Positions 3,101-63,260 of a stretch of DNA of 64,000 nt are shown here, in pieces. The notes under the pieces were generated by a model. That model did not search any database, was not told where the DNA came from, and saw nothing but the letters and a program-made list of their open reading frames with translations. The stretch's first letter is position 1. Each line of letters starts with the position of its first letter. This stretch comes from Vermamoeba vermiformis (taxonomy: Eukaryota), in NCBI GenBank assembly GCA_045837725.1, contig JBEWZL010000205.1:1-64000 (forward strand), in the 5' to 3' direction. The position numbers and the translations under genes are program-made.

Positions 3101-5405
3101 ATCCAGTATCCAAACAATTCGCGCGGTTACTCTGCATTGCTGGTTCGAAAGTCGAAAAAGCGAGTGCGGGTTGGATATGATTATGACACCAAAGATTATG
3201 GGGTTGTCAGTGTTATTGCAGTTCTCAAAGTGCGAAATGGAAAGGCTTCTTTATTAGTTTTGGATGCCGAGGACGAAGTCCAGCGCGTGTCACCATCTTC
3301 GGTCAAAAATGAAGTTGGACAATCCAGTGCAACGGTAGTCAAGTCATCAGAGAAAAGAGTACATCAGTATTTGGAGCAATCTGAAGATACAGAGCCAATT
3401 TATTCACCGCAAACACCTCGCCAAAGAACCATTGTCACGCGCACTTCCACTTCTGCGATCAACTCGAAGCAAACTCCCAATACTAACTCCATGCAACTTG
3501 TGATATCTCGAATTGAAGCACTTGAAAAGGAAGCCAGAGAGACCAAAGAGAGCATTCAGAAGCTGTCGAAACTACTGGAGGCACAATCTGCTAATTTGGC
3601 TAAAAATTCTAACTCTGCTCCTCAATATCCTATGTTTGTTCCCTACCCTCAACTTAAAGGGTATTTTGAACCAGCCCAGCAGTCTCCCAATAATGAAAAT
3701 CGAAAACGAACACACCACTCTCGCTCTCGCTCCCGCTCACCATCTCCCAAGTCTTCGCGTCACAAACGGCACCCTCGGCAACTGAAATACTACAGTGACT
3801 CCAGATCATCTTCATCATGCTCTAGATCTGCCTCAAACTCACCTGAGAGGAGTTTCGAAAAGCACTACAAGAGGCGAAGATCCAGATCTCCAGATCGCCG
3901 ACACCGATTGACTCACCAATCCCCACGCTCGCCCACTAGGTATGATTCATATGCACACAAGAGTTATAAGAAACAAAGATTTTATTAAATAATAAACACC
4001 ATTCCAAATTGCTTCAACTTGTTTTGCTTTACGACTTATTTGGCAGTTTACAGTAGAACATGTAAAATTCGTTGTAAGTAAGCGCAATATTTTTCAAACA
4101 GGTATATTAATTATAAAATTATAGGAATGCGATTTCTTACTCGATCTACCTCCAGAATTGACGGATTTAATTTTTTCCTATTTATCCGAGTCAAAATGGA
4201 GGTTTTGCATGCGATGCGTATGCAAGCGATTGATGAATTGGATCAATATAACAGATTTTAAATTTGGATTGATTTATGGTCGCCAGATGAGCGAGATCGC
4301 GGATTCGTTTTCAAAATACACGAAGCCGTTTGGATTTAACTTTGCATGTGCCTCTATTGACACGATAAGGACACATCAATACGAACCTATCTCGAAATTA
4401 TCAAGTTTAACGTCATTGAGGATTGGACATCAAGGTCTGACAGATGGTCGTGATCCAACGTTCATTTCAGCATTAACAAACTTGGAACAATTAGAAGTTC
4501 ATATGATATCCACAAAGACCCTTAATAGATTAGCAAAATTGAAGAGTATCACCGCTGCAGTATTTACATTGAAAGATTATTATTCAGACGAAGATTCTGG
4601 AGTGGCTCCGTTAAGCTTGCCTTCTTTGGAAACTGCAAATTTCAAAGTTATTCAAGCCGAAGATACTCTTCCTATATTAAGCGATTCATATCGACTCACG
4701 AGATTGACGATAGATCGGATCACAAAGTTACCGCCAAATTATTTCGCAGCGTTATCGAGCTTACGAGTGCTGAAAATTTACGCTTGCACATCGGCTGCAA
4801 ATGACGGACATTATTCAATGTTAGCTCATATTGATGCACCATTGCCTAATTTGGAATCCTTGCACACTAATACTGAAATCTCGTTTTTCGAAAATATGGT
4901 GCAAAACTTGACTTGTTTGTATCTCAGCTGCTATTCAACACAAAAGTCAAACATTAGCGATATAGAACAATTAACAAACTTGCAAAAGTTGACGCTATTT
5001 GGGCTTAATGAAGGCCATCAAAGTCTGGATCTGAGGCGATTGCAACAGCTGTCATCATTAGTATTATCAAGCGCAACAGTAACTTCGTATTCATATGATA
5101 CACTCCTTGACAATATTAACACTCACGCATTGCAACAATTAACGATTTCTTCAATGGAGCACAAACAATCTCTCAGCCTAATTTCCAAATTAAGTAACTT
5201 GACAGATTTGGACTTGTCGTTTCCTTACATAGGAGTCAATAATCCGACAGCTATCGATGATATTGAGCCAATATTGTTAGCTCTGAAGAATTTGACGAGA
5301 TTTCAGGTCTACGGCAACTGCACTCCTTTGATAGTCAACGATTTGGCCAAGTTGAAGACCTTCAAAAATTTAAACTTACTTGGCCCGGTAATAGACCGAA
5401 AGTAA
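127..5405 (+). CDS. F-box/LRR protein whose exon 1 is interrupted by the pogo element (main exon 4125-5405)
   Basis: The reconstructed empty site reads ATG GAA CAA TTA GAA CAT GTA AAA TTC GTT, then intron 4074-4124, then ECDFLLDLPPELTDLIFSYL (F-box) and LxxLxxLxL repeats. Confidence 0.8.
190..1775 (-). pseudogene. pogo-family transposase (CENP-B-type HTH + DDE_1), frameshifted near 460-620
   Basis: Motifs: IPKSTLYSW, GGGRKP, ASDKWLHGFFRRH, GNMDE, RVTVILAVMADGTKLPPMIIFKG, LLVWD (shifted frame), QPLDVSINKSFK, SFKVCGI. Probable intron ~1477-1607. The 5' end is approximate. Confidence 0.88.
1725..2516. repeat. internal 145-bp inverted repeat (1725-1869 and 2372-2516) flanking a ~500-bp spacer
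   Basis: The two copies are reverse complements with one mismatch seen (TTTGATCAA vs TTTGGTCAA). Confidence 0.95.
2500..3988 (+). CDS. transposon-borne protein of unknown function, with coiled coil and Arg/Ser-rich C-terminus
   Basis: ORFs 2237-2671, 2704-3066 and 3050-3988 appear joined by GTAAGT..AG introns at ~2668-2710 and ~2995-3040. Coiled coil ISRIEALEKEARETKESIQKLSKLLE; RSRSRSPSP tail. Start codon uncertain. Confidence 0.7.
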
Positions 5406-24623: not shown

Positions 24624-27605
24624 TTACTTCTGCACGTTATTATTATTATTGACATGCATTGTTTCCAAGAATTTTAACGCGTTATTTTCTTCTTTTTGTT
24701 TTCTTTTCGCATCCCACTTGAGGGTAGTAGCCATCAAGTCAATCTACAACGATCAAAAATTAATGGATGAAACTTCATTTATTATAGTTAGAGCTATTAA
24801 GCATATGACTTACCACTCGCGGCAGTGCTTTTCTCGCCGCATTGGTGTCCAAAAAGGCTAATCGTGTTCGTCGGGCTAACACATCCACAGCAGTGGCAGC
24901 GTATTCTAAGCATTAGATGTTAATATCAAATACTCTTATAGTTAATTTTAAGCTAACTTACCGTTAGTAGCGCAATACACGACTTCCGCTTCCAAAAAAG
25001 GAAAATCCGGCGCCAATCGTTGACCGTAACCTTGTTGCGCTAATTCACCGACTAAAGCAGCTCTGAAATAACAAGATTATTAGCATTATTATAGTAATAC
25101 ATCAATAGTGTATATTGTCATCGTACCTAGATCCGTACGAGTGCGCCAAATGTTCCGCAATGTCGTCATCGATGGGATGATGTTTCTTCTCCGCCTTATT
25201 GTAGCGATGATATTTGCGCTTCAATTCTTCTTGCACTTCAGCGCTATTGTAGCCTAGTGCGCCAATAAGTGGCACTTCATCAGTGAAACACTTGATCTGG
25301 ATGCACTCGTTAGATCTGGATCCGCTTGGCTCATCCAAAACAAAATTTCAAATAGCATAGCATTACTATATAGTAATATGCCCATAAAATCAATAATAGG
25401 TTGTTTTTCTTGCTTACTTTAGGTTTCTGCTTCATTTCTTCGCGATCTTCAATGCGATCCGTAATGTCCTGCGCCATTTTTCTGTAGGTCGTCCACTTGC
25501 CGCCGGTAATCGTCAACAAGCCGTTGTCACTGACCTCGACCACGTGATCACGTGATATCGCTTTGGTGTCTTGATTCTCTTTCACTTTCAACGGCTTGGC
25601 GAGGGGTCTGATGCCGCTCCACACCGACAGCACGTCATTGGGTGTGACAGGCTCGGCGAGAATTCGATTCAATTCTTCGAGAATAAAATCGACTTCTTGT
25701 TGTTGCGGCACTGGGTGGTCGAGTAATTCCGCTTCAGAGTCAGTTGTTCCGGCGAGCACGCGGTTCTCCCAGGGCAACAAGAACAATACTCTGCCGTCCT
25801 TAGTCTTCGGAATTAATACGCCCGCGTCTTTGGCTGCAAATTTCTGCGGGATCATGATGTGCGTGCCATTGCTCGGCTTGATCATTTTGTGCGCACTCGG
25901 GTCATTCATCAAACGAATGTGGTCTGCAAAGAAATGTATATATAAGATAATGCTATCATATTTGAATGAGTCTCAAATTTAAATAAATTTTTGAATTTTC
26001 AAAAACGGATCGGATCCCATCAAAATTTGTTTTAAATACTCTGATCGTAAGGAGTGCGATTCTATAGGTAATACGTACCAACATAAGGACCAGTAGCATT
26101 GACAATAATCTTTGCGTGAATGTCCCACACTTCACCGGTCAAATTATCCTTCACTTTCGCGCCGATCAATTTGTTGGGCTCAGTTTTATCCTATCAACTC
26201 CATATTAGGATAAATAGTATAAAAGTTATAAGGAATGAATAACAATTGCTCGTAAAAGTATCGTCAAGGAAACGAGATTCGGATCTTTTTGTTGGTTGGA
26301 TGCGAATCCACATACCTTTAGTAGTTCGACGACTTCAACATAATTAGCCAAGGAAGCGCCCTTTACAGCAGCGGTGGTGGCCAATGAGACATTCATTCTG
26401 CTGTCGTTCATTTGTCCGTCGTAATACAAAATGGTGCCTTTCAAATTCTCGCTCGCTAACTGCGGGAACTTTTCAAGCGACTTGGCCTTTGAGATTATAG
26501 CAGTACTACAGTATTAAATATTATATTAATATCCTTACTGATATTTTGCTATATAACAACGTACTTTCCGAGTTTTCCTTTGCCTGAAAGCAGATCGTAC
26601 ATTGCAAGACCAGTGTACATGTAGGGAATTTCGTACCATCTATTATAATATAGTACGTTAATACGAGTATTATATATGTCCATAATTATAGAGCGTACTT
26701 GTAGCATGGAGTTAATAGAGGAAGTTTTCGAGTCAGATGTGGAGCAATGTTCAAGAATGTAGTTCGTTCGTGCAGCGCTTCAAATACTAAATGCACTTGA
26801 CTATAGTCCAAGTTTTTAATAGCTGCTTCGAGGTAACCTATTCACAAACATCATGTAAACGACAAACTCAAACGAAACTGGATCTCGTGTTTAAAGTAAT
26901 CGATAAGGATTATACTATCATAAATAGTAGTAAGATAATATATTGATGAATTGGTATAGACTTACGAACACCTCCGTGAATGAGTTTAGTGGATCTACTC
27001 GAAGTACCAGATGCGAAATCTTCGCGCTCTATCAGTTGAAATAATATTTGTTAAAGATTGAAAATAATAATATTAATTTATTTACTGACCTACGAGTGCG
27101 ACATTAATGCCTCTAGTAGCGCAGTCCTAAAAATAATCGGATTTAGGTACCGCGTCACGCGATTAATAATCAAAATAATAAGGAGGATGTATAAATACTA
27201 TTATTTTCAAATTGAATTCGATCATAGACGAATAACGACTAGAAAATAATTGGCGGGCAGATCCAAAATAAAAAATTCATGAATAAATAGAATTAATCTG
27301 AAAAATACCGAATGCAATTCATTATGATAAATATTTTACTAATTAATTATACTCACCAATGCTATGCCTGTACCAGTCGCACCACCGCCAATTACCAAAA
27401 CGTCAAATAAAGTCTTGGATTTGAGCTTAGCAAGGTGTTCTTCACGCGATGGTATTGTAATTTGAGTATCTTTAATTCTTAATTGTCGATTTTTCTCCGG
27501 ATCCTCTTTATTTCCCGTCGCTGTCAAAAATACAGCTCCGCCGAGTGCCGCACTTACTGCAACGGATCCGGTTAATTTTTTCCAGTGCCTTGCTAAGCGA
27601 AACAT
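24624..27605 (-). CDS. GPD2: mitochondrial FAD-dependent glycerol-3-phosphate dehydrogenase
   Basis: Motifs DVLVIGGGATGTG, DFASGTSSRSTKLIHGG, YYDGQMNDSRMN, GTTD, WSGIRPL, GGKWTTYRKMA; transit-peptide-like N-terminus. Confidence 0.95.
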
Positions 27606-46809: not shown

Positions 46810-49357
46810 ATGAAACTGCTATTACTCGCGACTATTGCCTTACTGGCTTACCAAGCGCAAGCTGGTGCGTTTAAAAAGGATTCTATCATACTCTTGGGAA
46901 CTGAGGGATCCACTACCTCTCAGACATCTACCGTCGTATTGAAAGAGTACCGATATGATGGACTTCTCCTTCAAACAATTACTCTGGGTGGGTAAGTTAT
47001 CAATCCATCCGTTAACAAAGACTTAGTGATTTATTCCGATTCCAACGATACTCTTGATTTCCTCTCCGCATAATACTTAAATTATATATACAGTGTTAAT
47101 TGCCACCCTTTTGTAATTTGCATGCAATTATTAAATTGATTTAAAATTAAAAAGATTTTGTTTCTAAATCCGTCTTTTTTTAGGTACGTTTATTCAAAAC
47201 AAAACGTGCACAAAATTATGCTCGACTACGCGGGTAGTATGTTAGCTATTGGTGTCTTAGAAGGTGCTCCTGGCCTTGCCTCCACATCTGGAATGCCGCG
47301 AGTTGCATTGACCATGAACGCGAACGGCGCAATTGTGGATCGCACCAAGATCACCGATTTCAGCAATCAAGATGCCAACTTTTACTTCGCAGTGCATAAT
47401 GGACAAGATATATGGCTTGGATATGACGGCACAGTTGGATACACGACTCGTGGGGCGACATCATTGATTACTCCTAGCGTCTCCTCGAGAACCAACATTC
47501 AATACGTACAAATAGTCGGTAACACGTTCTTTACTTGCAAGGCGCAATCTGGCTTCGCCTTCTGGTCCATGCCCTCACCTCCGAAAGTTTACAGCGCCGA
47601 CTATCCTTACGGGTCCTCCGTTCCTTACACTGCAGTTACAGCTTTCTCTTCCACCATTTGGTACGGTGCAGGGGCAGGAAAAGTGGCAAAGATGGAGGCA
47701 AGTGCAAACGGTTTTACCGATATTTATGCAACTGGCGTTGATACTTTCTCTTCGCGTTCGGTCATCGCGAGGCAATTTGGCATCGTGGTCTATGTCTTCG
47801 TACTGACGACTGATGGTTGGATCTATCGCTACACTGATAGCGGCAGCGGATTTACTGAGAGAAGAGATATTATTTCTGGTGATGGTACTGCATCCGCGTA
47901 TCTCGCTTTCTCACCAAATCCGAGCTGCGATGACTCTGGCAAGAACCAAGACGAGACTGACATCGACTGCGGCGGCGCATTGTGCAATAAATGCGATGAT
48001 GGCAAGATCTGCGCGGTGAATGCTGATTGCTATAGCGACTACTGCAATCCTAACCAGAGATGCTGTACGTATCAAGAGAATGTACGGCTAATGCATAGTT
48101 ATTAACAATCTTGCATCTAACAGCTACTCCGAGTTGCTCTGACGGCTTCAAAAACCAAGTAGAGACTGATGTAGATTGTGGCGGTGGCACGTGTTCCAAG
48201 TGCGCCAATGCCAAGACTTGCAGCGCTCACACCGACTGTACAAGTGGCTTCTGTAATCCCAATACAAATAAGTGTGGTACGTACAAAGGAAATCGAAATT
48301 ATCACCTTCCTAATATGTCTCGTAGCCGCGCCAAGCTGCTCCGATACGTTCAAGAACGGAGACGAAACTGATACTGACTGTGGAGGCTCTTGCTCCAAGT
48401 GCAGCATTGGCAATACTTGCTCAATCAATGGTGACTGTGCGAGTAATAAATGCTCCGGCAACAAGTGCGGTAAGTTATAACTGACTCCAGTGTCCGACAT
48501 CAAGCTGATTGTACTTGTAGTGATCAGTTGTTCTGATGGAGTGAAGAATCAAGACGAGACTGACATTGATTGTGGCGGTGCGACGTGCTCGGCATGCGTT
48601 AATGGCAAGAGCTGCTTGCTTGGAAGTGACTGTACGAGCGAGTACTGCAATCCCGACAACAAATGCTGTAAGTACACTCAATGATACGACCCAAGCATGG
48701 TACTAACACTTGCTTCAGCGACTCCTTCGTGCTCGGACGGCTATTTGAACCAAGACGAGACGGACATTGATTGTGGTGGTTCCTGCAGCGACTGCGCGGT
48801 AGGACAAAATTGTTTATATGACACCGATTGCTTGAGCAAAAACTGCACAGACACCAAGTGCCGTACGTAATATTCTGCTATTGCCAAGAAATATCCTAAC
48901 TTCAAAATTCTTAGAATACAGTTGTGTTGATGGCGTACTAAACCAAGATGAATCCGATATCGATTGTGGTGGCAGTTGTGCAACTAAGTGCGCCCTCAAC
49001 CAAGTTTGCCATAGAGACAGCGATTGTCAAAGTGGGTTCTGTCCCAACGCATCGTGCAGTATGTGATATGACTTTATTTTGAGAATCAAATTCACTAATG
49101 ATTCATTAGTGAGCCCACCTGTTGCAGGTCCTGTTGCACCACCTGACAACTCACCAGTGCCCTCGCCAATAGCCTCTCCTTTTGCTGATTCCACTCCTGA
49201 TGATGGCTCTGCTCCTCAGATTGATGCTCCTCAATTTGGCAATCTACCAGTTGCAGTCCCCAAAACAAACACTCCAAGTCAAAGCATTGTGTCTGGTGCT
49301 TTCACTCTCAACAGTATGAGTTTCATGCTGATTGTGGTATTTGTATGCTATTTGTAA
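46810..49357 (+). CDS. secreted/GPI-anchored protein with six Cys-rich C.DG.KNQDETDIDCGG repeats
   Basis: Signal peptide, beta-rich N-domain, six repeats mostly one per exon, Pro/Ser stalk and hydrophobic tail. Confidence 0.85.
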
Positions 49358-49649: not shown

Positions 49650-50550
49650 GTGAGTTGCTTTTTTGTCTGTGAGAGCAATCTGAGCTTGCAAACTATCAGT
49701 AGTGTTTGGTTATCTGTACTCTCCAGCCAGGTATTTTTAGGTGGCAAATGAGTGTTTGTCATTCAATGTGGAAAAGGGCTTGGCCATATGGTGAGGTCCC
49801 CAAGTCTCATGTTTGAGAAAGTACCACTATGGGAAAACTAGGGTGCATTAAAAATGAGAGTATGTACTTTGGTATTGATGTTTGTGCACAATTCCACTTG
49901 TTTTCATCAAAGATCAAGCACAAGTATCATGGTATGGCCCTGCACACACAAGTTAATGTGGAAATTGGGTATGTGTCAACAATTTTAATTTGTTACTAAT
50001 ATGAAAACAATACAGCACCATTGACCAGAAGTGGTGTATTTATGCCTGTTTCCCACAATTCAAGTACACTAGCAAGCAGAGTAGCCAATTAATTTATGCA
50101 TTTTATTGAGATGTGTTTACGTCCAAAAATTAGCTGTTCATTTTTTTTACGATGCCACCCATCCACCACAAGTGATGGTATTATATTTTATTGTTCCCCT
50201 TGTAATAGTGCCAGTAATTAGGGTGATATTCATGGAGCTGAGCTACTGGAATGGCATCCACTCGTAAGTATTATTATTTAAACATTTAATACATAATTAA
50301 TGCTATAATTATTACAATTTTATTTGCAATTAAAAATAATATCTCAATAATTTTTGTTCAGGATCGACAATTACCAACAGCCAGAATTTTTAGAGGTTGA
50401 GTACATTGATGAAGAAAACAATAAGTAAGTGATCTCCTCACTATCCTCACTGCTGTCCTAGCTTTCATACTCATAGTTGTCATTTTCATATCTGTCAGCT
50501 TCTTTTAGGGGCAGATTCCCTGGCGAACGAAGTGAGCCAATGGGGGGTTT
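49650..50550 (+). CDS. possible small multi-exon gene or pseudogene of unknown function
   Basis: A series of GT..AG introns bound short open exons (IKHKYHGMALHTQVNVEIG, TIDQKWCIYACFPQF, VIFMELSYWNGIHS, IDNYQQPEFLEVEYIDEENN). No complete frame was reconstructed. Confidence 0.35.
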
Positions 50551-50936
50551 AGGGGGGCTTGCCCCCCTAATAATGATAAGAATCACCATATTATATGGCT
50601 GTACATGCATATTAATATGAAATAAAGCAGTAAAATTGCCGAAAATGGCCGAAAATGCCTGCAAAATGATCTTAAGGGGCGTTAGGGGCGCGAATGCGGC
50701 CCCTTTAATTATGGGGGGTTTAGGGGGGCTTGCCCCCCTAATAAGAAACATAATACTCCAGGCTAATACTTGTACGCACTATTGCTGGCAAAGCCTGTAA
50801 AATACTACATGAGACTAGCACAGATAGCCACAAAGTTAAAAGGCAGGGCCAAGAATTTGGCCTGCCTTTGTTTCAAAGTAGTGGAGCAATAAGCATGCTT
50901 AATAGTTCCAGGCAGGGCCAAGAATTTGGCCTGCCT
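50540..50936. repeat. two pairs of duplicated hairpin motifs
   Basis: ATGGGGGGTTTAGGGGGGCTTGCCCCCCTAATAA at 50540 and 50711; AGGCAGGGCCAAGAATTTGGCCTGCCT at 50841 and 50910. Confidence 0.9.
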
Positions 50937-51046: not shown

Positions 51047-53725
51047 TTACTGCTTTTTTGGCTTTTTGTTGGCCTTGTTCTTGCCAGATCTCTTTCTTTT
51101 CTTGGGACTAGCTCGAACAATAGCTTCAAGCTCAGTATAAATCTTGACTTCATACTGATCAACCAAGTCTAAGAACTGCTTCAAGCTGGTGATTCTCTCC
51201 CAAGTTGGATCTCTAGTTTCCCATTGCACTTGATAGTAGAGGTGGCCGTTTTTGTACATTTTGCCTGAAATAGACTGGGCTCTGTACTTGTCTGAGTAGA
51301 TGACTTCTTCTTCAGACATTGACTGCAAGTCTTCAAGGACTTCATCTGCAGAGTCAAGTTGCGATCCATCGTCATGGGAACCAATGGCATTTCTTGCATG
51401 AGCAGCAGCTGCATTGGATTGTTCAGTGGCTAGGTAATCTTCATTGAAGCGATTGATGAGAGTGTTAGCCTGGTTATTGACGTCAGCATCATTGTAGTAG
51501 CGCATCAAAGTGCCGACATCGTGGTTTTGAACATTGGCCAACATTTGAAGAAACTGTTGCTGAGAGCCAAGTCCAGCCATGTATTCGTCCAAGTAGGCCA
51601 AAGTGACAAGCAAGTGTCTCCAACGCAAAGAAGTCATGTGAGTGCCAGGAATAATCTTTGCACAGCACTTGGCTACAGCTCTGGTCATAGCAGAAGGATC
51701 TTGTGGGTTGCCATTTTGAAAGCCAAGCCAAAGAGCCAAAGGATCTTCATCAGTTTGAACCAAAAATGGTCTAACTTTCTCGAGAAAGAATTTGAAGAAT
51801 GGATTGCAGTCAGCAGGGAAAGGAATCTTCTTGACAAACTTTCTGAGCTTCTTTTCCTTGAAGTCTGGGCTAATGATGTAGCATTTCTTCTTGTTGCTGA
51901 ATTTGAAGTTGTCTCTGGTCATGTGAATGATCAGCTCTTGACGCTGGCCTCCAATTTTGAAGTGACAGAGCATTTGAATCCAAGACTGAATGTTGTAGCA
52001 GATGCGATGAGTGTCAGTGGCAGAAGCCAAGCCAATGGTGTCGTCCCAAGCTTGAATAGATTTGTTCAACTTGATGAAAGTTGTTGCATGAACTTCCTTT
52101 AACTGCTGAGCAGTGATAGCTTTGCCATCAGCAAGGAGTTGATCAAAACAGGGTCTATCTATTTGGCTGACTTGTTGCTGCTGTTTCATCAGTCTTCGAA
52201 AGTGACCAGCCTGTTGAGCAACAATCCAAAGTTCTCCTCCGAAAGGACGCAGGCACTCGACTTCTGCCAGCAACCACTCGCATACTTTTTGAGTGTACTT
52301 GGCTTTGTTGTTGGCAGTGTTGGGAGAGCCGGCACGGAAGCGACAGTACTAGTGGAAAGCGCGCATTCTCTTGGAGGACAAGAAGCAAAGCCACCCAGGA
52401 CAAGAGCCTTCATATTCCATGCAAAAGGTCCACAAGTTCTTCAAGTAAGTGGCAACACCAGTAACAACAGAGTAGAACTTGTTGTAGTTAATTTGGCGGT
52501 TTCTTGCCAAATTTACTGTTTCTCTCTTATGCTTTTGCTTGTAGTCATGCAGGACATTCCAAAAAAAGGAGAGAAGGAAGGGAAAATCAGCTTCAAATTG
52601 TTTGTGCTGCGCTTTGGTGAGCCATGCAAATCCTTTGCCTTCAAGCTCTGCAGGCCAGTCAAAAGTTGTGTATTCTGTAGGCCATCTCCCTTCTTTGAGC
52701 TTGCGTGTAGCATTTTGGGGATAAGAAGCTTTTGCCCAGTTAGGTCTTTGATCCACATTATTTGTTTTAAGAGACGAGGCTTGGAATTGAAGGTCTTGAA
52801 CAATCCCATAGTCATTCCCTTCATAGGTGTCTTCTAGGTCAATGCCAAGCTGAGACAAAGTAACCTCAGAGAAGTCAACAGGTTTGAAAGCAGGCTCCAG
52901 GTTGTTGCCATCTTTGTCTTTAAGGAAAAACCCAATTTGATGCAGGTAAGACTCCTTTTGTTTCATTGTCATGCCGCTGTCTTCATCTTCTTGTTTGTCT
53001 TGGTCTTCCTCTTCTTGTTCACCATCACTGGCATTGTCGGTGAGGTCAACTACTGTATGCTTGGTTCTTTCAGCTTCACTGTCCAAGTCCAAGTTACTTT
53101 GCATGCCAACAGCATTATCGTCTTCTTCATAGCTTTGTTCGTTAAAGTTGAGCGCTTGGCGAGTCAAGTACTCCTGGAATTCACTTTCATGCTCTCTGTC
53201 TATTGCTGGATCAAACAGATCAAAGCTAGTGAGGAACAAAGTAAGCAACTGAATGCAATACTAATTAGATTATCCTTTTACCTTTGATTACGGCTGCTTC
53301 CCTCCTCAATAATCTGGGTTTGATCGTTGTCGATCTCTTGTGCTTCGCCATTCAAAGCTTCTGTCAGCCTACATAAAGAATAAGGGCATTGTAAAGGGCT
53401 TTTCAAAGACGTACTGATTGCTGGACACAGCCACTGCAAGTTGAGCTCGATCCGACCTCAAAAAAGCTTTTGTAGGCTTGAAACTGCTGCGTTGTTTGAC
53501 CTCCAAGCTAACCGTGCAGCTCTGCAAAAGTTCTTCTAACAGGGGATTATTCTTTGCAAGAGCATAAGCAATTGACGACTGCACGCTTTGACCATTAGGA
53601 ACCACAATGTAAATCGTCGAATTGCGAGCGTTAAAGTAGACGTCGCACTCGTGGCCTTTTGTCTGCTCAAATGCCTGCTGTATTGAAGTTAAAAAAGGCA
53701 CTGTAACCTGAGACGTGGCGTTCAT
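51047..53725 (-). CDS. tyrosine recombinase with C-terminal chromodomain; two introns and one in-frame TAG at 52349-52351
   Basis: Catalytic-order motifs GGQRQE (R), KEKK (K), TSLRWRH (HxxR-like), LANVQNH (H) and LMRYYN (Y). C-terminal YRAQSISGKMYKNGHLYYQVQWETRDPTWERITSL fits the chromodomain pattern; basic NLS-like tail. Confidence 0.85.
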
Positions 53726-54596
53726 GTTGGAAGTGGATTGAAAATAAAAAAACAAAAGAAACGAACAAAATTCGACGCATAAAGTTAATAAAAAGAATAA
53801 ACGTGATAAAACGGCAAAAAGAAAATCAACGAGCAAAACGCACCTTTCCACGAAGCCTAGAGGTATATCCCCTTGCTATATCACGTTTATACTTGCGTGC
53901 AAGTCTTACCGTATTAGGGTAAAATTAGGCCCCCGATGTGCACTAGGGAATCCCCCAGGAGTGATCTCATTCATCCCGTTGCCGGGAGGGCTTACCCATC
54001 TTATGCATTCTAAGTCACTTTATTGGCTCCCCAGCATCAGAGATGAAACTATTACGGGACGTACAGCCTCATCTAGCCATGTGAAAGCCCTTTAAAAGAG
54101 CTTTTGATCAAGGCCCATCTCCATGTTCAAAGTTGCGTATTCACTGAGTATAGAGGGACTGAAAGGGTTAGGGTTAGGGCTTATGCTTCGCTTTTCAGGC
54201 CCCTGGATCTCTGACGAAATTTCACCGAAATTTCCGGGAGTTGTTCCATGCAGCGAGGGCCGAAGGCCCGAGCGCATTGCACCAAGTCCCATTACATTTG
54301 GTGATAGTGATGCAGAGATACAGGGGCTCGAAGTAGCTGCGGCGCCAGCGTCGTAATGCCGCAATGCCGCAGGCAAATCACCGTTCCTGACACTTTTCGG
54401 TTAATTCTAGCTCTGAGTCACGGACACTCACAGACCTCTCCTTTGCAGGGTAGTCTAGTCTATATTTTAGATGATTTATCATATAAAATTTATTAATATT
54501 GCTGAAAGTTCGAATTTTTCAAAAAATTATATACCCTATAGGGGTAGGGGTGGGTAGGTGGGGGGTTGCGTATTCTATTTTCATTCACATCAGCAT

Positions 54597-54808
54597 CAAA
54601 CAGGATGCACGATTATCGTGCACGCATGCGCATCAGACAGAGCGTACGATTATCGTGCACACATGCGTGCCAGACAGGGCGTACGATTATCGTGCACGCA
54701 TGCGCATCAGACAGAGCGTACGATTATCGTGCACGCATGCGTACCAGACAGGGCGTACGATTATCGTGCACACATGCACATCAGACAGGGCGTACGATTA
54801 TCGTGCAC
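54597..54808. repeat. six 37-bp tandem units, each with palindrome GYACGAT-T-ATCGTGC
   Basis: GATTATC recurs at 54611, 54648 and onward with 37-bp spacing. Unit: CAGACAGRGCGTACGATTATCGTGCACRCATGCGCAT. Confidence 0.95.
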
Positions 54809-54810
54809 AG

Positions 54811-55765
54811 GAGTGGGCACCTAGAATTCCATGAGTGGGCACCTGGGATTCCGGGCACCTAGAATTCCGGGCACTTAGAATTCTGGGCACCTGGGATTCC
54901 GGGCACCTAGGATTCTGTGACTGGGCACCTAGGATTCCGTGGGCACCTAGAATTCCGCGCACATGACTGGGCACCTAGGATTCCGTGGGCACCTAGGATT
55001 CCGGGCACCTAGAATTCTGTGAGTGGGCACCTGGGATTCCAGGCACCTAGAATTCCGTGAGTGGGCACCTGGGATTCCGGGCACCTAGGATTCCACGCAC
55101 ATGAGTGGGCACCTAGGATTCCGTGGGCACCTAAATTTCCGTGAGTGGGCACCTAGGATTCCGTGAGTGGGCACCTGGGATTCTGGGCACCTAGGATTCC
55201 GTGAGTGGGCACCTGGGATTCCGGGCACCTAGAATTCCGTGAGTGGGCACCTGGAATTCCATGAGTGGGCACCTGGGATTCCGGGCACCTAGAATTCCGT
55301 GAGTGGGCACCTAGGATTCCGTGAGTGGGCACCTGGGATTCCGGGCACCTAGGATTCCGTGAGTGGGCACCTGGGATTCCGGGCACCTAGGATTCCGCGT
55401 ACATGAGTGGGCACCTAGGATTCCGGGCACCTAGAATTCCGTGACTGGGCACCTAGGATTCCGTGACTGGGCACCTAGGATTCCGTGAGTGGGCACCTGG
55501 GATTCTGGGCACCTAGAATTCCGTGAGTGGGCACCTGGGATTCTGGGCACCTAGAATTCCGTGAGTGGGCACCTGGGATTCCGGGCACCTAGAATTCCGT
55601 GAGTGGGCACCTGGGATTCCGGGCACCTAGAATTCCGCGCACCTAGAATTCCGGGCACCTAGAATTCCGTGACTGGGCACCTAGGATTCCGGGCACCTAG
55701 GATTCCGTGAGTGGGCACCTGGGATTCCGGGCACCTAGAATTCCAGGCACATGACTGCACACCTA
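54811..55765. repeat. GC-rich minisatellite: 16-bp core GGGCACCTRGRATTCC with optional GTGAGT (16/22-bp units, often 38-bp dimers)
   Basis: Directly visible array of about 950 bp, roughly 50 core copies. Confidence 0.95.
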
Positions 55766-56043
55766 AATTCAAACAGCCCTGCTGACTAAACTTTATGTGC
55801 CCACTAAATTCCTACATTTGTGTCACTCCCTGAACTTGCTTTTAAAACTCCTTTGCAAAAAATGGCTACCAAACATTAGTATCTAATTTTTAACATGAAA
55901 AAGTAGTGTAACTGAAATACCACTTAGGACACTGCTTTCCCTACCATGCTATCCTTGGACAATGTATGAGTGTGTCTGATATGATCAGACACACTAAGAA
56001 TTGAACTTGGATAGCTACAAAGTCATTACATTGTCCTGAAACT

Positions 56044-57608
56044 TTATTTATTTTTAGAGCCTAAGCGTACAGATGGGAATGAATTGTTCTTCATTTGCTG
56101 AACAAAACCCATGTCCTTATTCATTACAGTTTGTCGTTTTGCGTGAATAGCTGCAGCTTGAGACATCACAAATAGATCTGTGAGGAAATATTCAGAGGAC
56201 AATTGTAGAGCTTCAAGAGCAACTGCTTGCCAGCGAACACCTTCTAAGTCACTATCACGGGTTAGATCTTCAGTTACTTCACGGACAAGGCGCTGGAAAC
56301 CTCGACGTGACATCAGAAGTGTGGTGCTGTTTTGATAAAATTTGATTTCAGCCATGCCTATTAAAAATTATTAATAATGAACTAGTATAAATTTACTGAA
56401 CTTACGTCTACTTGCAAGGCTTTGATTCACGTTCTTCTTAGCCTTGAACACCTTGGGCTGCAAATGTTTTAATTACACACGTGTTTATGAAATTAGTTTA
56501 AATGATGATATAACTTACTCTTTTCGTTGGACGAGAGTTTGAATCTGCACCTGATGCCTTTCGTTTCTGTCCTCTCTGTAAGATAAGACTGTGAGATTAC
56601 TTATCAATTTACTAACAATATTACCTTCGGTTCATTCTCATTCTTATCGTCAACTACTCGTTTTCTCTTCTTTGCCTTCTTGTTGGCGACGGTTTTGTTT
56701 GTTGCACCTCTCTGCAATAATGTTAGGTCATACTATTAATTAAATTACTTACCTTTGTCATGTACTCCTCTTCATCGACCTTGCCGACACTCTTTCTTTT
56801 CTTGTTTGGCTGTTTGGCAGGGGCTTGTTGCTTGGCAGTGTCCGCTTGTTTGCCACTCTCCGATCCTGATTGTCGTAGTTTGGCATTGCCGTCTTTGTTG
56901 CCTTCATCAGCAGCAACATTGGTGTCTTCAGCCTCACTGTCGCGTTTCTCGCCACCCCCTTCTTCTTCTTCAGCCTCACCATCGTCATTGTTACCGCGTT
57001 CTTTTTCGTGCTCGCTGTGTTCGCCTTCTTCTGGCGCTGCACCTTCAACGTTTTGGTTGTTTTGGGCTAATTCCTAAATAAAAATTAGCTATTGTTTGCT
57101 CATAGCCAATAAAACTGTACTGCATTAGCGTCGGTGATCTCAACAACTTCCTCGATCTCACCAGCCAAACGTGCTGATCGTCTGGGTGAATTACCAACAC
57201 CATCATCTTGGGTCGCACGAGCTTTGTGGCGAGCTTTAGCTCCAGGCCTATTTCGTCTTTTACCGGTCCTGATTGAAGTACATTATTAAACGTGTTTTAA
57301 TTATTAATTTCATCGAAAAAAAGCATCTTGGAAATTTGCCCCGTAAATAAAGATTAATGATTAAAATTACTTACTTTTGGCCTGATTTATTTGAAGATTT
57401 TTTTTTCGATTTATTCTTATTAGTAGACTGGGAATTAGACCTAATTATGCCGTTAATAATATTTAATTTTGACGATAAATATTTTATTCATAATTGTACA
57501 CTACGTACTTATTTCCAGAGGCCACCCGACCAGATCTGTTAACTATTGTAAATATCTAATAAACAAACTTATTATATGAGCTTACATTTCGTGTGGGGAA
57601 CGAGGCAT
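56044..57608 (-). CDS. divergent histone H3 variant, CenH3/CENP-A-like, ~360 aa, 9 exons
   Basis: Histone fold AEIKFYQNSTTLLMSRRGFQRLVREV..RWQAVALEALQ..AIHAKRQTVMNKDM. Eight GT-AG introns join an open frame from MPRSPHEI at 57608. Confidence 0.88.
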
Positions 57609-57707
57609 GTGGTGTTTGATTTGGGTACGATAGATTTTTGTTTCGATTTTAACGGTAACCAAAAAACCTTCGGCCACTAGCAAAAAGCAACAGATAGACC
57701 AACAGCA

Positions 57708-58672
57708 ATGTTAAATTTAAGGTACGTATTAAATCGCAAATAATTTTTTTTTGCCTCTTGGCGCAGATCAAATAATAATAATTCTTTATTTATTTTTAAA
57801 ATAATTAAAATACTTCGTAGGCTAGTAGCAAAAGATTTCTTAGTTGCCGCTAGCAAGGAACAACTATTTGCATCGGTTCTTGGAGTGCACCAAGTAACCG
57901 GAATTGCTGTACCAACGATTAAAAAATATGCCTTGGAAAAAAATATTGGTAAGCCATTGAATATCAATTACTATTCCATTTCTGATATGACATTAGGACG
58001 AAAATTATTACCGGGAGAGATCCCGCCTGAAATTGCATCCAAGATGCATAAATTAAAGGTTGAAGGGTATTGGTTTGATGTCGCCGACATCAATTCCCTT
58101 CTACGGATAATCAGCACCAAGACCAGCAACAAAGAACAACTCAAGACAATAAGGTAAGGATTAAAATTTTAACGACCAATTAAACTCACCAAAATTTTAT
58201 AGGGAAGGACTCAAATCAACAACCTTGAACAAAATTATAATGGTCGCTTGGGATGGCTCGAATTTTAAGGTACGTGATTTTTAAAATTAAAATAATTATT
58301 TAATTAACCAATTTTGAGTTGCTTTGGAGAGAATCAACTGACGAGGTTTCTGCCGATGAGAGTGATCCAACACTCTTATCGACTGCAGACGCTGAATTTT
58401 TAGCGAGTGAGGAACTGCTCGCCAAGGGTTGGAAAGCAATACCCAACCGAGCAGAACACATCGCAAAAATTTATAATATTGATATCTCACAAATTGAGAC
58501 GCCAGTGAAAGAAGCGGAAACAATTCCTATTTTGGACAACTTACACAATTTTTACACGAACGCTGCGGCAACAAGTGCATCGGACGAGGATCTATCTGGC
58601 GAGGAATTTGAAGACCTAGACTCATCAGAAGAGAGCCAATCAAAAGAAAGTAGCTCGGAGGATTTTGTTTAA
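57708..58672 (+). CDS. uncharacterised protein with acidic C-terminus, head-to-head with the H3 variant
   Basis: Exons MLNLR | LVAKDFLVAASKEQLF..QLKTIR | EGLKSTTLNKIIMVAWDGSNFK | LLWRESTDE..SSEDFV splice in frame. The last acceptor is uncertain. Confidence 0.65.
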
Positions 58673-58685
58673 CGTTAATAAATAT

Positions 58686-60213
58686 TTATTTAAAAATATT
58701 ATCAATTTTCTTTTCTAAAAAATACAACTTTCTTGCTCGGCCTCCAGCTCGACGTGCTCCTCTCTGTGCAGAAGAACGCCCCGATGTACCTTTGGGCTGG
58801 TGGTTTGACGGCTCGATCTCTGGCAATGGCAGGCTTAGGAGGCTGGCCTTCGTACGGTCTCGAAGTCTAATGCTCTGCGTTGTCATTAGACATTATTAGA
58901 TATAATTATATTATTATTTATATCTCGATTAGACATTATTATTTTATTTTAAACTTACCTCTTTTTGCGGCGATCCTAGCGTGATCTTTTTATCCGCCTC
59001 ACCCCACCACATGTACGGTCCAACACCAAGACCATGAGCCCCAAAGCCTGTCGTCTGCGTTGATTCTTTGTGCCAACTTGCTGGCATCTCGGATAATTCC
59101 TCTTCTTTAAGATCGGGCACAAAAATCGTTGCCTGAGACTTCGTTATTTTCATTTCTCGTGCACCGGCCTTCGTCAGCCCTGCTGTCAATCGCGCTACCG
59201 GCACTCGATGCTCTGGGTCCAAATTAACAGAGCTCGCTCGGTAGACTTTGATGAAAATGGCCCTGAACGAGAGCCATTCCCGCTCATCAAACTCGGTTGG
59301 CGGCACGTATGGTCTATTGGCCATATAGCCAATCATGAAGTCGAAGTACGCTTGAACCAAGGCAACGAACTGCTGCAAGTAACCGCGCACTATCATTGCG
59401 TCATAGAAATTTGCCCAAGGCCGAATGCCTAATTATGTAGTTAATAAATTGGCTATTATCCGTTAGTAGCCAGTATTTACCTGTATATTTGTACCACCAA
59501 AAGCAAATTTCGTTTGAAGAATACGCACCGACACCGTTGAACATCGATTGGTTCAATAAACAGTCGATGATCGTTGCCCTCTAGTAAAATATTAGTATTA
59601 GTCGTACTGATTTGTTATTGTACTAACCTTGAAATATTTTTGGTAGGCATCATCGTTTAACAGCGCCAGCAAGTGTTCGTGCAAGTCGCCGGCAAGTACA
59701 TCCGGGCCCCTGGCTGGATCCATCGCTAAACTTGCATCAGGATGCCATTTGAATGACACCTGATTTTGTTTGGTGTGGCAATCTAATATATAGATTGCCG
59801 CACCATTGTCGGCATTTAGCGCTATGTTTCGCCGATAGTCTAATGGGCTCGTGTCGCGATCTGATATCGCACCAACGTGAAATGCTGCGCCGGTGCCCAT
59901 GCCAAAGGTCATCGCGTAATTATTAAAAATTAACGCAATTTCCTTGCCTCGTGATACTACCTACGTAAATAATAATTAATTATAACCTAATTTTAAATCA
60001 AAACTTACATCCGTAACCGTCAGCGGTAGGCACGCGCGCATTGCCTCGATCTCCGCGCTGTACTTGTTGTGAGGCACGCGCTTCTCCACTTCTACAATCC
60101 TTAAGCCAATTGCTATAAATAAAGATTAATACAGATTAAATTTTATTTTATTTGGAATTACCTTTTTCTTTGAGGTGCCTTGCGAAGCCCTCGATCTCTG
60201 TTTTTTCGGGCAT
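58686..60213 (-). CDS. Fpg/Nei-family DNA glycosylase/AP lyase (NEIL1-like)
   Basis: Spliced protein begins MPEKTEIE (Pro2-Glu3), then SRGKEI, FGMGTG, RGPDVL, H2TH IIDCLLNQSMFNGVGAYSSNEI, KVYR and a basic tail. Confidence 0.85.
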
Positions 60214-60274
60214 ACTATTAAACGGTAATCGATTAATTAACAATTAATAAATTACTTATTCAATTCGTTTAACG

Positions 60275-60703
60275 AAGCCAATCCGGATCATTTTGGCGAG
60301 TGCAACAACAGCTGCTGCCAGACACCAGCTTGATTTACGTCATAACGCCGCGGTTCATCTGGAACCAGCCGCGCTTGATTTCATCAAGCTGTGTGCGGCA
60401 TCAAGCTGCATTGAAGCCGGATTAACCGTTGCTTCGATTGAGTCAGATGCGGTTCAACGGGAACCAGCAAAACGACAAAACCATCGCCAAAGCTGAGGTC
60501 ACTCTTAATAGATTTTTGGAATTGGCTTCGCAAATAACAAAGCCAATCCGGATCATTTTGGCGAGTGCAACAACAGCTGCTGCCAGACACCAGCTTGATT
60601 TACGTCATAACGCCGCGGTTCATCTGGAACCAGCCGCGCTTGATTTCATCATGCTGTGTGCGGCATCAAGCTGCATCGAAGCCAGATTAACCGTTGCTTC
60701 GAT
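60275..60703. repeat. 164-bp direct duplication (60275-60438 / 60540-60703)
   Basis: Three mismatches seen; offset 265 bp. Confidence 0.92.
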
Positions 60704-61246
60704 CGGATCAAGTGTGCGGTTTAACGTAAACCAGCGCCACAGTAATCCATGCATGCCCTTGATGACCTCGCAGCGTAGTGTCGTATTTGATTACGAGTAA
60801 ATTCCTAGTCAAGCCAGCACATCTCGAAAGTAATTTAAAAATTATACTAAAAAAATTTAAAATATTATTAAACGATAATATTTGTTTTTGTTGCTTACGT
60901 TTTATTTTTCTTGATGCCAAGCTCAGACAAACTTCATTGGACTGAGATCGGGGTCCCGAAACCTTATGACAGGGCCGATCGACTATTTAAAAAACAGAAG
61001 TAGTAGTTAGAGGCTTTATTCTCGATATTGTTAGTACTTACCTGCGCGTGGTGTGTTGATATTGCGGTTTAAACAGTTAAATGACGTGTTTCGAAATTTA
61101 CCAAAAAAAGTTAGCCAAAAAAATTTGGGCCAAAAAAAGTTAGCCAAAAAATTCGTCCCAAAAAAAATTGCGGAAACCAATTTTGCGCGTTTGTCTTCTA
61201 TCCGCACAGATGCGCAGCAACACAACTCAGCTAAAGGTCGTAATAG

Positions 61247-61888
61247 GTAAGTGTTCTTTATTGTTTTATTATTTATATTGTATTAATTTCTTTAGCTATC
61301 TTTACTAATTAATTTTCGTAGATTTTAATGCGCGCATCGGCTTAACCACGAGCAAAACCGCGTCAAGCCCCCACGCGCTTGGATGACCGCAGTGATGGTA
61401 AGTGTTATTTAATTCTCGCGTGAGAATACTAATTAATTTTATTTGTATTAGATTTTACAACGCATTGAAATTACCTGTGAGCGAGTCCGTGAAAAGCCCT
61501 CCGCGCTTTAATGATGAACAGTAACGCAGTATTGATGGTAAGTTAATTATTTAATCTAGCGCGAGAATACTAATTAATTTTGTTTGTATTAGATTTTACA
61601 ACGCGCATTGAAATTACCTGTGAGCGATTCGTGAAGAGCCCTTCGTGCTTTGATGAATGAACAGTAACGCAGTATTGATGGTAAGTATAATTATTTAATT
61701 CTCGCGTGAGAATACTAATTAATTTTGTTTGTATTAGATTTTACAACGCGCATTGAAATTACCTGTGAGCGAGTCCGTGAAAAGCCCTCCCGCGCTTTAA
61801 TGAATAAACAGTAACGCAGTATTGATGGTAAGTTAATTATTTAGTTAATTAGTTAAGCTCGCGCTAGAATACTAATTAATTTTTACAG
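61247..61888 (+). repeat. tandemly repeated intron+exon units (~140-150 bp), apparently non-coding
   Basis: GTAAGT donors at 61247, 61398, 61538, 61681 and 61828; ACTAAT branch-like sites and TAG/CAG acceptors; similar exons of about 76-90 nt containing stop codons. Confidence 0.75.
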
Positions 61889-61929
61889 ATTTTAGTACTA
61901 AAATGCGCATCGGGTTAGACTTGGCACAA

Positions 61930-63260
61930 GCAAGCCCGCACCGAGCTCTCTTTTGGCTCATCCTCTGCACTTCTTGTGCAGCATATGTGAACTATTCATG
62001 ATGGCTACTCGCGTCTTGTTTCGCTAGAACTGCGATTTCCGTGCTCTAGATTTGGTCACTGGCGCATCCGTACCGAGCCTTCCCTGCCTTGGCTCACCCT
62101 CTGCGCTTCTTCACAAGGGTCTGCGGTGTATCGACGAACTATTCACGGTGACTACACGCGACCTGGGTCGTTGGAGACAGTGCAACACGATCTCCCGCGC
62201 ATCGGATTTCTCGCTAGCGAATCCGCACCGAGCCCTCCCTGCCTTGGCTCACCCTCTGTGCTTCATCATAAGGGTGTGCGGTGTGTCGACGAACTATTCA
62301 TGGTGACTACACGCGTCCTGAGTTGTTGGAGACAGCGCAACACGATCTCCCGCGCAGCAGATTTGGCAGTAGCGAATCCGTACCGAGCCTTCCCTTGCCT
62401 TGGCTCACCTCTGCGCTTCTTCACAAGGGTCTGCAGTGTGTCGACGAACTATTCATGGTGACTACACGCGTCCTGAGTTGTTGGAGACTGTGCAACACGA
62501 TCTCCCGCACAGCAGATTTGGCAGTAGCGAATCCGTACCGAACCTTCCCTTGCCTTGGCTCACCCTCTGTGCTTCATCACATGGGTGTGCAGTGTGTCGA
62601 CGAACTATTCATGGTGACCACACGTGTCCTGAGTTGTTGGAGACTGTGCAACACGATCTCCCACGCATCGGATTTGGCAGTGGCGAATCCGTACCGAGCC
62701 TTCCCTTGCCTTGGCTCACCCTCTGTGCTTCATCACAAGGGTGTGCGGTGTGTCGACGAACTATTCATGGTGACTACACGCGTCCTGAGTTGTTGGAGAC
62801 AGCGCAACACGATCTCCCGCGCAGCAGATTTGGCAGTAGCGAATCCGTACCGAACCTTCCCTGCCTTGGCTCACCCCCTGCTCTTCTTCGCAGGGTCTGC
62901 AGCGTGTTTACGAACTATTCGCGAAGGCTGTATGCGTTTTGGGGTCGCCGAAGTTCGAAGTAATGCGATCTCCTGTGGTTGGATTTAATCTCGAGCTAAT
63001 CTGCACTGCGCTCTCTTCTGTCTTGGCTCACCCTCTGCTTTAATGCCCGGCATCTGTACGTTCGTGGTGGTTAGGTGCGCGTTGCATCGCTGGGGACGAA
63101 GCAACACGATCTCCCACGCAGCAGATTTGTCACGAGCGAATCTGCACCGAGCCCTCCTTTGTCTTTGGCTTACCCTCCGCACTTCGTCGCAGGGTCTGCA
63201 GCGCCTTTACGAATTATTCATGGTAGACACACTGGATACTCGCAACACAATCGAGCACAT
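61930..63260. repeat. tandem array of 155/156-bp units (about 9 copies, degenerate at edges)
   Basis: TTGGCTCACC recurs at 62089, 62244, 62400, 62555, 62711, 62866 and 63023. Confidence 0.95.

Follow-up and report, generated by a model that had tools for sequence, protein, structure and literature searches.

Centromeric histones of the CenH3 (CENP-A) type are usually encoded by one gene per genome, which keeps a stable host locus, and their tails, which typically lack ARKS motifs, evolve fast. The described proteins that stand closest to the histone reported here are Cse4 of budding yeasts (PDB entries 2yfw and 6uph) and Cnp1 of fission yeast (9lrv); they are its best-scoring solved structures, with a fold identity of about 45-50%. 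In excerpts of PMC7598501 and PMC4359364, both of which cite Malik and Henikoff 2003, the diagnostic features of a CenH3 are an extended loop 1 and the absence of three H3 residues, namely a glutamine, a phenylalanine and a threonine. Excerpted sources also indicate that CenH3 paralogs arise repeatedly, as in Drosophila Cid, mosquito Cid, Caenorhabditis hcp-3 and Chlamydomonas CENH3.1/.2, and, as far as those excerpts go, the extra copies are ordinary gene duplicates.

The gene discussed here lies on the minus strand (57608->56044) of the window, by which is meant the whole 64-kb stretch of DNA analysed, and its exons are listed with the neighbouring features in Table 1. It is probably the host genome's own CenH3/CENP-A-type gene, in a free-living protist lineage without a close named relative. 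This reading is preferred because of the histone fold, the residue marks, the profile of best matches, the host-like architecture of the gene and the existence of relatives that have in common with it both a block directly preceding the fold and, apparently, the position of an intron. We take the tandem arrays and the recombinase-like ORF found close by to be neighbours, and not parts of the histone gene's function.

Table 1. Exons of the histone gene and features around it, in positions of the window
Feature	Position	Strand	Basis
Exon 1, 23 nt, start codon	57586..57608	-	Sole upstream ATG splicing in frame; GTAAGC donor; provisional
Exon 2, 27 nt	57509..57535	-	CAG acceptor (57536-57538), GTACGT donor, in frame; provisional
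Exon 3, 66 nt, start of the basic S/K/N-rich tail	57375..57440	-	TAG acceptor, GTAAGT donor, in frame; provisional
Exon 4, 148 nt, basic part of the tail	57121..57268	-	Open frame between stops; in-frame splicing
Exon 5, 321 nt, acidic mid-tail, then K-rich stretch	56753..57073	-	Frame, charge profile, alignment to P0154
Exon 6, 87 nt, basic stretch with NLS-like K/R cluster	56625..56711	-	In-frame splicing, charge profile
Exon 7, 57 nt, start of the 28-aa block in common with P0154	56519..56575	-	Block E 0.003; intron 7 next
Exon 8, 52 nt, linker to the histone fold	56406..56457	-	In-frame splicing, alignment to P0154
Exon 9, entire H3-type histone fold and stop codon	56044..56357	-	Pfam Histone, PDB matches, landmarks
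Divergent neighbour gene, 5 exons, 239 aa, acidic C-terminus	57708..58672	+	Splice model
Recombinase-like neighbour, two long ORFs (303 + 433 aa), one frame, one TAG between	51047..53260	-	Putative identity
Two adjoining short-unit arrays (37 nt; 16/22/38 nt)	54593..55745		End 298 bp from the histone stop codon
Upstream arrays: 265-nt pair, 145 nt x 3, 155 nt x 6-7	60270..63219		Repeat analysis

The gene model was built from the minus-strand reading of 55980-57720 together with a stop-to-stop frame listing. It joins nine exons by eight GT..AG introns into a CDS of 1095 nt (364 codons plus the stop) with no internal stop, which reproduces the nine exons splicing in frame that an earlier, sequence-only reading of this DNA had proposed. 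The introns, from the first to the eighth, measure 50, 68, 106, 47, 41, 49, 61 and 48 nt (range 41-106 nt). Exons 4-9 are long frames with stops outside each exon at both ends, and the splices are required because these stops close each frame beyond its exon. Exons 5-9 are also backed by homology, through the Pfam Histone match and the alignment to the environmental protein P0154; the part of the tail encoded by exon 5 has no Pfam match. Exons 1-3 (23, 27 and 66 nt) are provisional, and their basis is the splice signals and the need for a start codon.

Given that the gene sits in a repeat-rich stretch, it might be thought of as a decaying or silent copy, a pseudogene whose frame is still open. 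However, the frame is intact over all nine exons, the eight GT..AG introns are intact as well, and the protein keeps 20 of the 20 columns that are invariant in its family, so that this is the least probable of the explanations considered here. Over 55800-58200 (2.4 kb, two genes), 0, 1 and 0 reads came from three raw-read RNA runs that carry the same species label, counts to be read with the proviso that the presence of the organism in these runs is not established. Among other runs, the water-metagenome run X3 contains four contig pieces of 55981-58200 with 0-1 differences, which shows presence only, and further water, soil, biofilm and bioreactor runs share small word fractions with the same stretch.

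Exon 9 encodes alpha-N, alpha-1, a long loop 1, alpha-2 and alpha-3, followed by a tail of about 14 aa and the stop. Its translation (56355 to 56047, 103 aa) matches the Pfam Histone family (PF00125) with an E value of 2.5e-19 and 70.2 bits, the cut-off being 26.4. When the fold was searched against the sequences of PDB chains, 176 matched at E<=0.001, and the best 60 of these 176 are all H3 or CenH3. Rows 1-8 of this search are Cse4 or Cnp1, led by 2yfw_A (5.6e-19, 71.2 bits), and the first plain H3 appears at row 12 (5.7e-15, 58.4 bits). The alpha-N, alpha-1, alpha-2 and alpha-3 helices are also seen in a monomer AlphaFold model computed with seven sequences, which is of low confidence (pLDDT 60.4).

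Landmark residues were numbered on H3 in an alignment of 143 folds, consisting of 141 single-fold hits, the window fold and a canonical H3 slice. Loop 1, taken between H3 positions 74 and 85, has 15 residues against 10 in canonical H3; the H3 phenylalanine F84 is replaced by W and the threonine T107 by S, and the glutamine Q68 is retained. The histone therefore displays three of the four marks named in the excerpted diagnosis (loop 1 +5, W84 and S107), and the fourth, the loss of Q68, is absent. The sequence-only reading had given the same account of loop 1 and of these three positions, all of which the alignment reproduced, and its description of the protein as CenH3-like is borne out by the residue marks and by Cse4 and Cnp1 as the best matches among solved structures. 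It had also counted Q68 as an H3 trait, an argument that proved weak, since this residue is lost in 4 of the 6 closest relatives and kept in 34 of the 67 long-loop, non-F84 rows of the hit set (the window's own row counted). The retained glutamine would thus be no strong counter-sign to a CenH3 identity.

One alternative explanation is that the protein is a divergent, non-centromeric H3 variant, acting for example in heterochromatin, at telomeres or at a particular stage, which resembles CenH3 through the fast evolution of both. The kept Q68 would suit such a variant, as would the moderate margin of the CenH3 scores over that of plain H3 (71 vs 58 bits). Moreover, W84 is found in 9 and a loop 1 of more than 10 residues in 20 of the 30 hits with an ARTK tail, so that these marks, taken singly, are not confined to CenH3. 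Against this stands the combination of a loop 1 longer by five residues, W84, S107 and an unalignable tail, which in the excerpts of PMC7598501 and PMC4359364 is what defines a CenH3, together with the fact that the eight best PDB rows are all CenH3s. Two further points, both taken from the relatives of the histone, bear on this alternative and are given with the tree below.

The tail in front of the fold is 261 aa long and contains 61 K+R and 42 D+E. Its charges are laid out in three zones, residues 1-60 being basic, about 75-145 acidic and 160-260 basic again, with three K/R clusters. The motifs ARTK, ARKS, TKQ and KSAP are absent from all 364 aa, so both the long acidic/basic tail and the missing ARTK/ARKS motifs of the sequence-only reading stand. 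From the same absence that reading had derived a second possibility, an H3 variant which could resist silencing for want of the K9/K27 contexts. No positive evidence was obtained for it, and a tail without ARKS is typical of CenH3.

The histone was used as the query of an HMMER pass over 1.84 billion representative proteins, in which 5859 proteins passed E<=0.001 and 317 of them also E<=1e-10, with a maximum identity of 53%. Canonical histones, mis-fused in tandem, occupy the top rows, and the closest single-fold matches are unnamed proteins on short contigs that come from NCBI, Logan, JGI and ENA. The closest relatives are six unnamed environmental genes that are 44-53% identical to the window histone, or 41-48% over the seven-member alignment. 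In this family alignment, alpha-2 carries an M-[A/S]-Q motif, additional residues follow alpha-3, and the 20 columns mentioned above are invariant. Word-based searches gave no match to the histone among longer proteins and 3 weak matches out of 9 candidates among proteins of near length. Locus scans of metagenome contigs with the family alignment and with the single protein yielded 101 and 342 pattern matches, respectively, and a scan of viral contigs with the histone family yielded 48; in each case 0 were confirmed.

A tree of the folds was computed from 140 rows and 95 columns (LG+G4, quick search), leaving out multi-fold fusions, fragments of <70 aa and five duplicate rows. It places the window histone in one clade, with an SH-aLRT of 97, together with P0015, P0016, P0019/P0154, P0157/P0023, P0029, P0158/P0033 and P0125; the clade comprises 9 tree rows, counting one duplicate and P0125. 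W84 occurs in every member and position 107 is occupied in all of them by a small residue other than T. At position 68 the members have Q, G, C, S or A, and because this position varies within the clade, the Q68 of the window histone is not a constrained H3 trait. Beyond the clade most of the tree is unresolved (89 of the 136 inner branches are open), which is common in CenH3 trees, and the clade is not grouped with the named CenH3s in it (Cse4, P0075; Rhodotorula Cse4, P0034). The label CenH3 is consequently based on marks and scores and not on phylogeny. For the non-centromeric variant, this missing grouping is a point in favour, and the free variation at position 68, which betrays no constraint of the H3 type, is a point against; on the whole of the evidence we regard such a variant as unlikely.

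Further support for the reading as a host gene comes from a comparison with P0154, a protein of 287 aa with an acidic/basic tail of its own. A block of 28 aa directly before the fold is common to the two proteins, with 50% identity and an E value of 0.003 after correction for composition, and only 1 of 500 shuffles reached its score. Elsewhere in the tail, the similarity to P0154 is not significant once composition is corrected for. An identity of 36% over 240 aa between the two proteins was also considered as tail homology and rejected, as the value is composition-uncorrected and carried mostly by the fold. P0155, which comes from another contig, tracks P0154 up to the residue aligned with the end of exon 7 in the window and then diverges, and P0156 resumes downstream. 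We infer that the position of intron 7 may be conserved in this relative and that P0154 may represent its spliced transcript, a pattern with which these three proteins fit.

All ten TRF rows of the 64-kb window, with scores of 334-1402, fall in 54.6-62.9 kb, on both sides of the histone gene. The 37-nt array occupies 54593-54808 and the adjoining 16/22/38-nt array 54815-55745; the latter contains 45 matches of a 17-nt core, against 0 expected. The other arrays lie 2.7-5.6 kb upstream of the gene, with the 265-nt pair at 60270-60710 and the 145-nt and 155-nt arrays at 61393-63219. Each array measures about 0.2-1.2 kb and occurs only once in the window. Scanning 50-64 kb for Rfam families and tRNAs gave no match, which means that the arrays are not clusters of small-RNA genes of a kind that Rfam contains. 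As all the tandem rows of the window flank the histone gene, and the recombinase-like ORF is 2.8 kb away, this neighbourhood is unusual. The interval from the recombinase-like ORFs to the 37-nt array also contains a telomere-like run of two and a half TTAGGG units (54165-54180) and a G-rich stretch (54540-54575), which may be there by chance.

The recombinase-like ORF is on the same strand as the histone gene, 2.8 kb past its 3' end, and the in-frame TAG that splits its frame (52349-52351) has no obvious intron around it. Read by eye, the 433-aa part shows an R...K...H/R...H...Y-like spacing and a chromodomain-like C-terminus, and profile comparison finds the last ~50 residues weakly chromodomain-like (PDB E 0.046-0.57; Pfam Chromo E 0.16). 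A language-model (Atlas) search gave a lead to tyrosine recombinases at 0.89, which is under the 0.9 line of the tool. The motif spacing, the chromodomain-like end and this lead are what the ORF has in common with the Crypton-type tyrosine-recombinase elements, from which 51047-53260 differs in having no Phage_integrase match, an in-frame TAG and no element ends that could be found. The Pfam Phage_integrase profile gave no match even at E 5, and PHROGs, tblastn against phage records and the viral-contig scan were likewise all without a match; the AlphaFold model (pLDDT 34.3) is unusable. The identity of these ORFs as a recombinase is putative. The picture of a histone gene among satellites and beside a recombinase, as it was drawn by the sequence-only reading, is therefore right in part: the tandem arrays are real, whereas profile and fold tools did not confirm the recombinase.

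Other repeats were noted in the window. The only dispersed one is a 52-bp inverted pair (137-188 and 4004-4055, 83% identical), within which lies a pogo/Tc5-type transposase frame on the minus strand (579-1592; HTH_Tnp_Tc5, E 2.6e-11; DDE_1, E 6.2e-07). The segment 137-4055, which also holds an S/R-rich ORF at 3041-3988, may be a DNA transposon of 3.9 kb. Two perfect copies of a 34-nt motif made of G/C runs (50540-50573 and 50711-50744) are found 171 bp apart, just past the 3' end of the recombinase-like ORF. Finally, a gene at 47140-49009, whose first 321 aa have no Pfam match, is internally repetitive, with a unit of 394 nt that falls into halves of about 197 nt and encodes a Cys-rich module with a conserved D-x-D-C-G-G.

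On its 5' side the histone gene faces a divergently transcribed neighbour, and the 99 bp between the two ATGs form a common divergent promoter region; the exons of this neighbour have no Pfam or PHROG match. Beyond it, at 58944-59960 on the minus strand, there are two orphan ORFs of 162 and 120 aa. The longer one gave weak language-model (Atlas) leads, at 0.87-0.88, to viral hypothetical proteins and to a Pox_D5 cluster. A viral identity of the Pox_D5 type was not borne out for it, since searches of PHROGs, viral contigs and phage records were all without a match.

The window as a whole is gene-dense; besides the pogo/Tc5-type transposase already described, it encodes, among others, a PPR protein, a TrmB-type methyltransferase and, at 24.8-27.1 kb, a G3PDH of the mitochondrial type. 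The G3PDH gene (24793-27035) appears as at least 8 homology blocks separated by gaps of 61-152 nt, from which it follows that short and frequent introns are the style of the host, a style that the histone gene has in common with it. One G3PDH exon is 91% identical to a single unnamed JGI metagenome protein, and its best named matches, from oomycetes and other protists, reach 51-55%. With named matches at just this level, the organism has no close named relative in the protein collection searched.

These observations bear on the most far-reaching claim of the sequence-only reading, an element-borne CenH3 paralog with a possible neocentromere or drive role. The histone gene would then be an extra CenH3 paralog on a mobile island made up of the recombinase-like gene, the arrays and the orphan ORFs, and could seed CenH3 chromatin on arrays of its own. 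Such an island is brought to mind by the arrays, all of which flank the gene, by the position and strand of the recombinase-like ORF with its chromodomain-like end, and by the weak viral leads of the orphan ORFs. However, no inverted repeats were found in 48-64 kb, and the self-comparison of the 64-kb window found no dispersed repeats near the gene, so nothing marks it as the cargo of an element. In addition, no profile, fold or tblastn test bore out the recombinase identity, and the reading frame of that neighbour carries an in-frame TAG; the viral lead is unsupported, and the histone family was not found in viral contigs. The intron density of the histone gene is host-like, unlike the long uninterrupted ORFs of the recombinase-like neighbour, and its relatives apparently share an intron position. 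A literature search, covering titles and abstracts, brought up no description of a CenH3 gene on a Crypton or another element.

With no bracketing repeats, host-like introns and relatives that have the intron position in common, the claim of an element-borne paralog has gained no positive support, and we consider an extra copy on a mobile island to be quite improbable. A little more improbable still is the fuller version, according to which a second, island-borne CenH3 copy would travel with a chromodomain-bearing recombinase gene and its own arrays as a neocentromere or drive cassette. If an island-borne gene were present after all, a mobile unit would bring along a centromeric histone together with repeats as its substrate, and might be able to nucleate CenH3 chromatin.

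For a host CenH3, which is the preferred reading, the biology of the family suggests how the parts of the protein might work. The histone fold would pair with H4 and replace H3 in centromeric nucleosomes, and the loading chaperone would recognise the protein through loop 1 and alpha-2, which correspond to the CENP-A targeting domain. The tail, which is long, basic-acidic-basic in its charges and equipped with K/R clusters, could serve in nuclear import and in the recruitment of the kinetochore. If the reading is true, the gene encodes the centromere histone of a protist lineage without a close named relative and would offer a handle for mapping the centromeres of the organism. Together with its environmental relatives it would also define a small, previously unnamed clade of CenH3s marked by their very long tail and by an extension at the C-terminus. 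A gene of this kind is useful and yet expected, because nearly every eukaryote has one; only the element-borne reading would be a surprise.

Compared with canonical H3 and H3.3, the window histone has the same fold, at about 45% identity, and keeps the FQRLVRE stretch of alpha-1 and the AIHAKR stretch of alpha-2. It differs from them by the lack of ARTK and ARKS, by the five additional residues of loop 1 and by changes at position 84 and at positions 105-110. With the environmental clade it shares W84, the small residue at 107, the M-[A/S]-Q motif in alpha-2 and the long loop 1, and most members of that clade have a longer, K-rich C-terminal extension than the window histone. Cse4 and Cnp1 differ from it in several respects, as the window histone keeps Q68, has about 14 residues after alpha-3 and does not group with Cse4 in the tree. 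Its loop 1 is 2-3 residues longer than that of Cse4, as judged from the alignment gaps, and its tail of 261 aa compares with about 130 aa in Cse4, as judged from the match coordinates. What the window histone has in common with Cse4 and Cnp1 is an extended loop 1, a W in place of F84, a replaced T107 and a long tail that is not alignable to that of H3.
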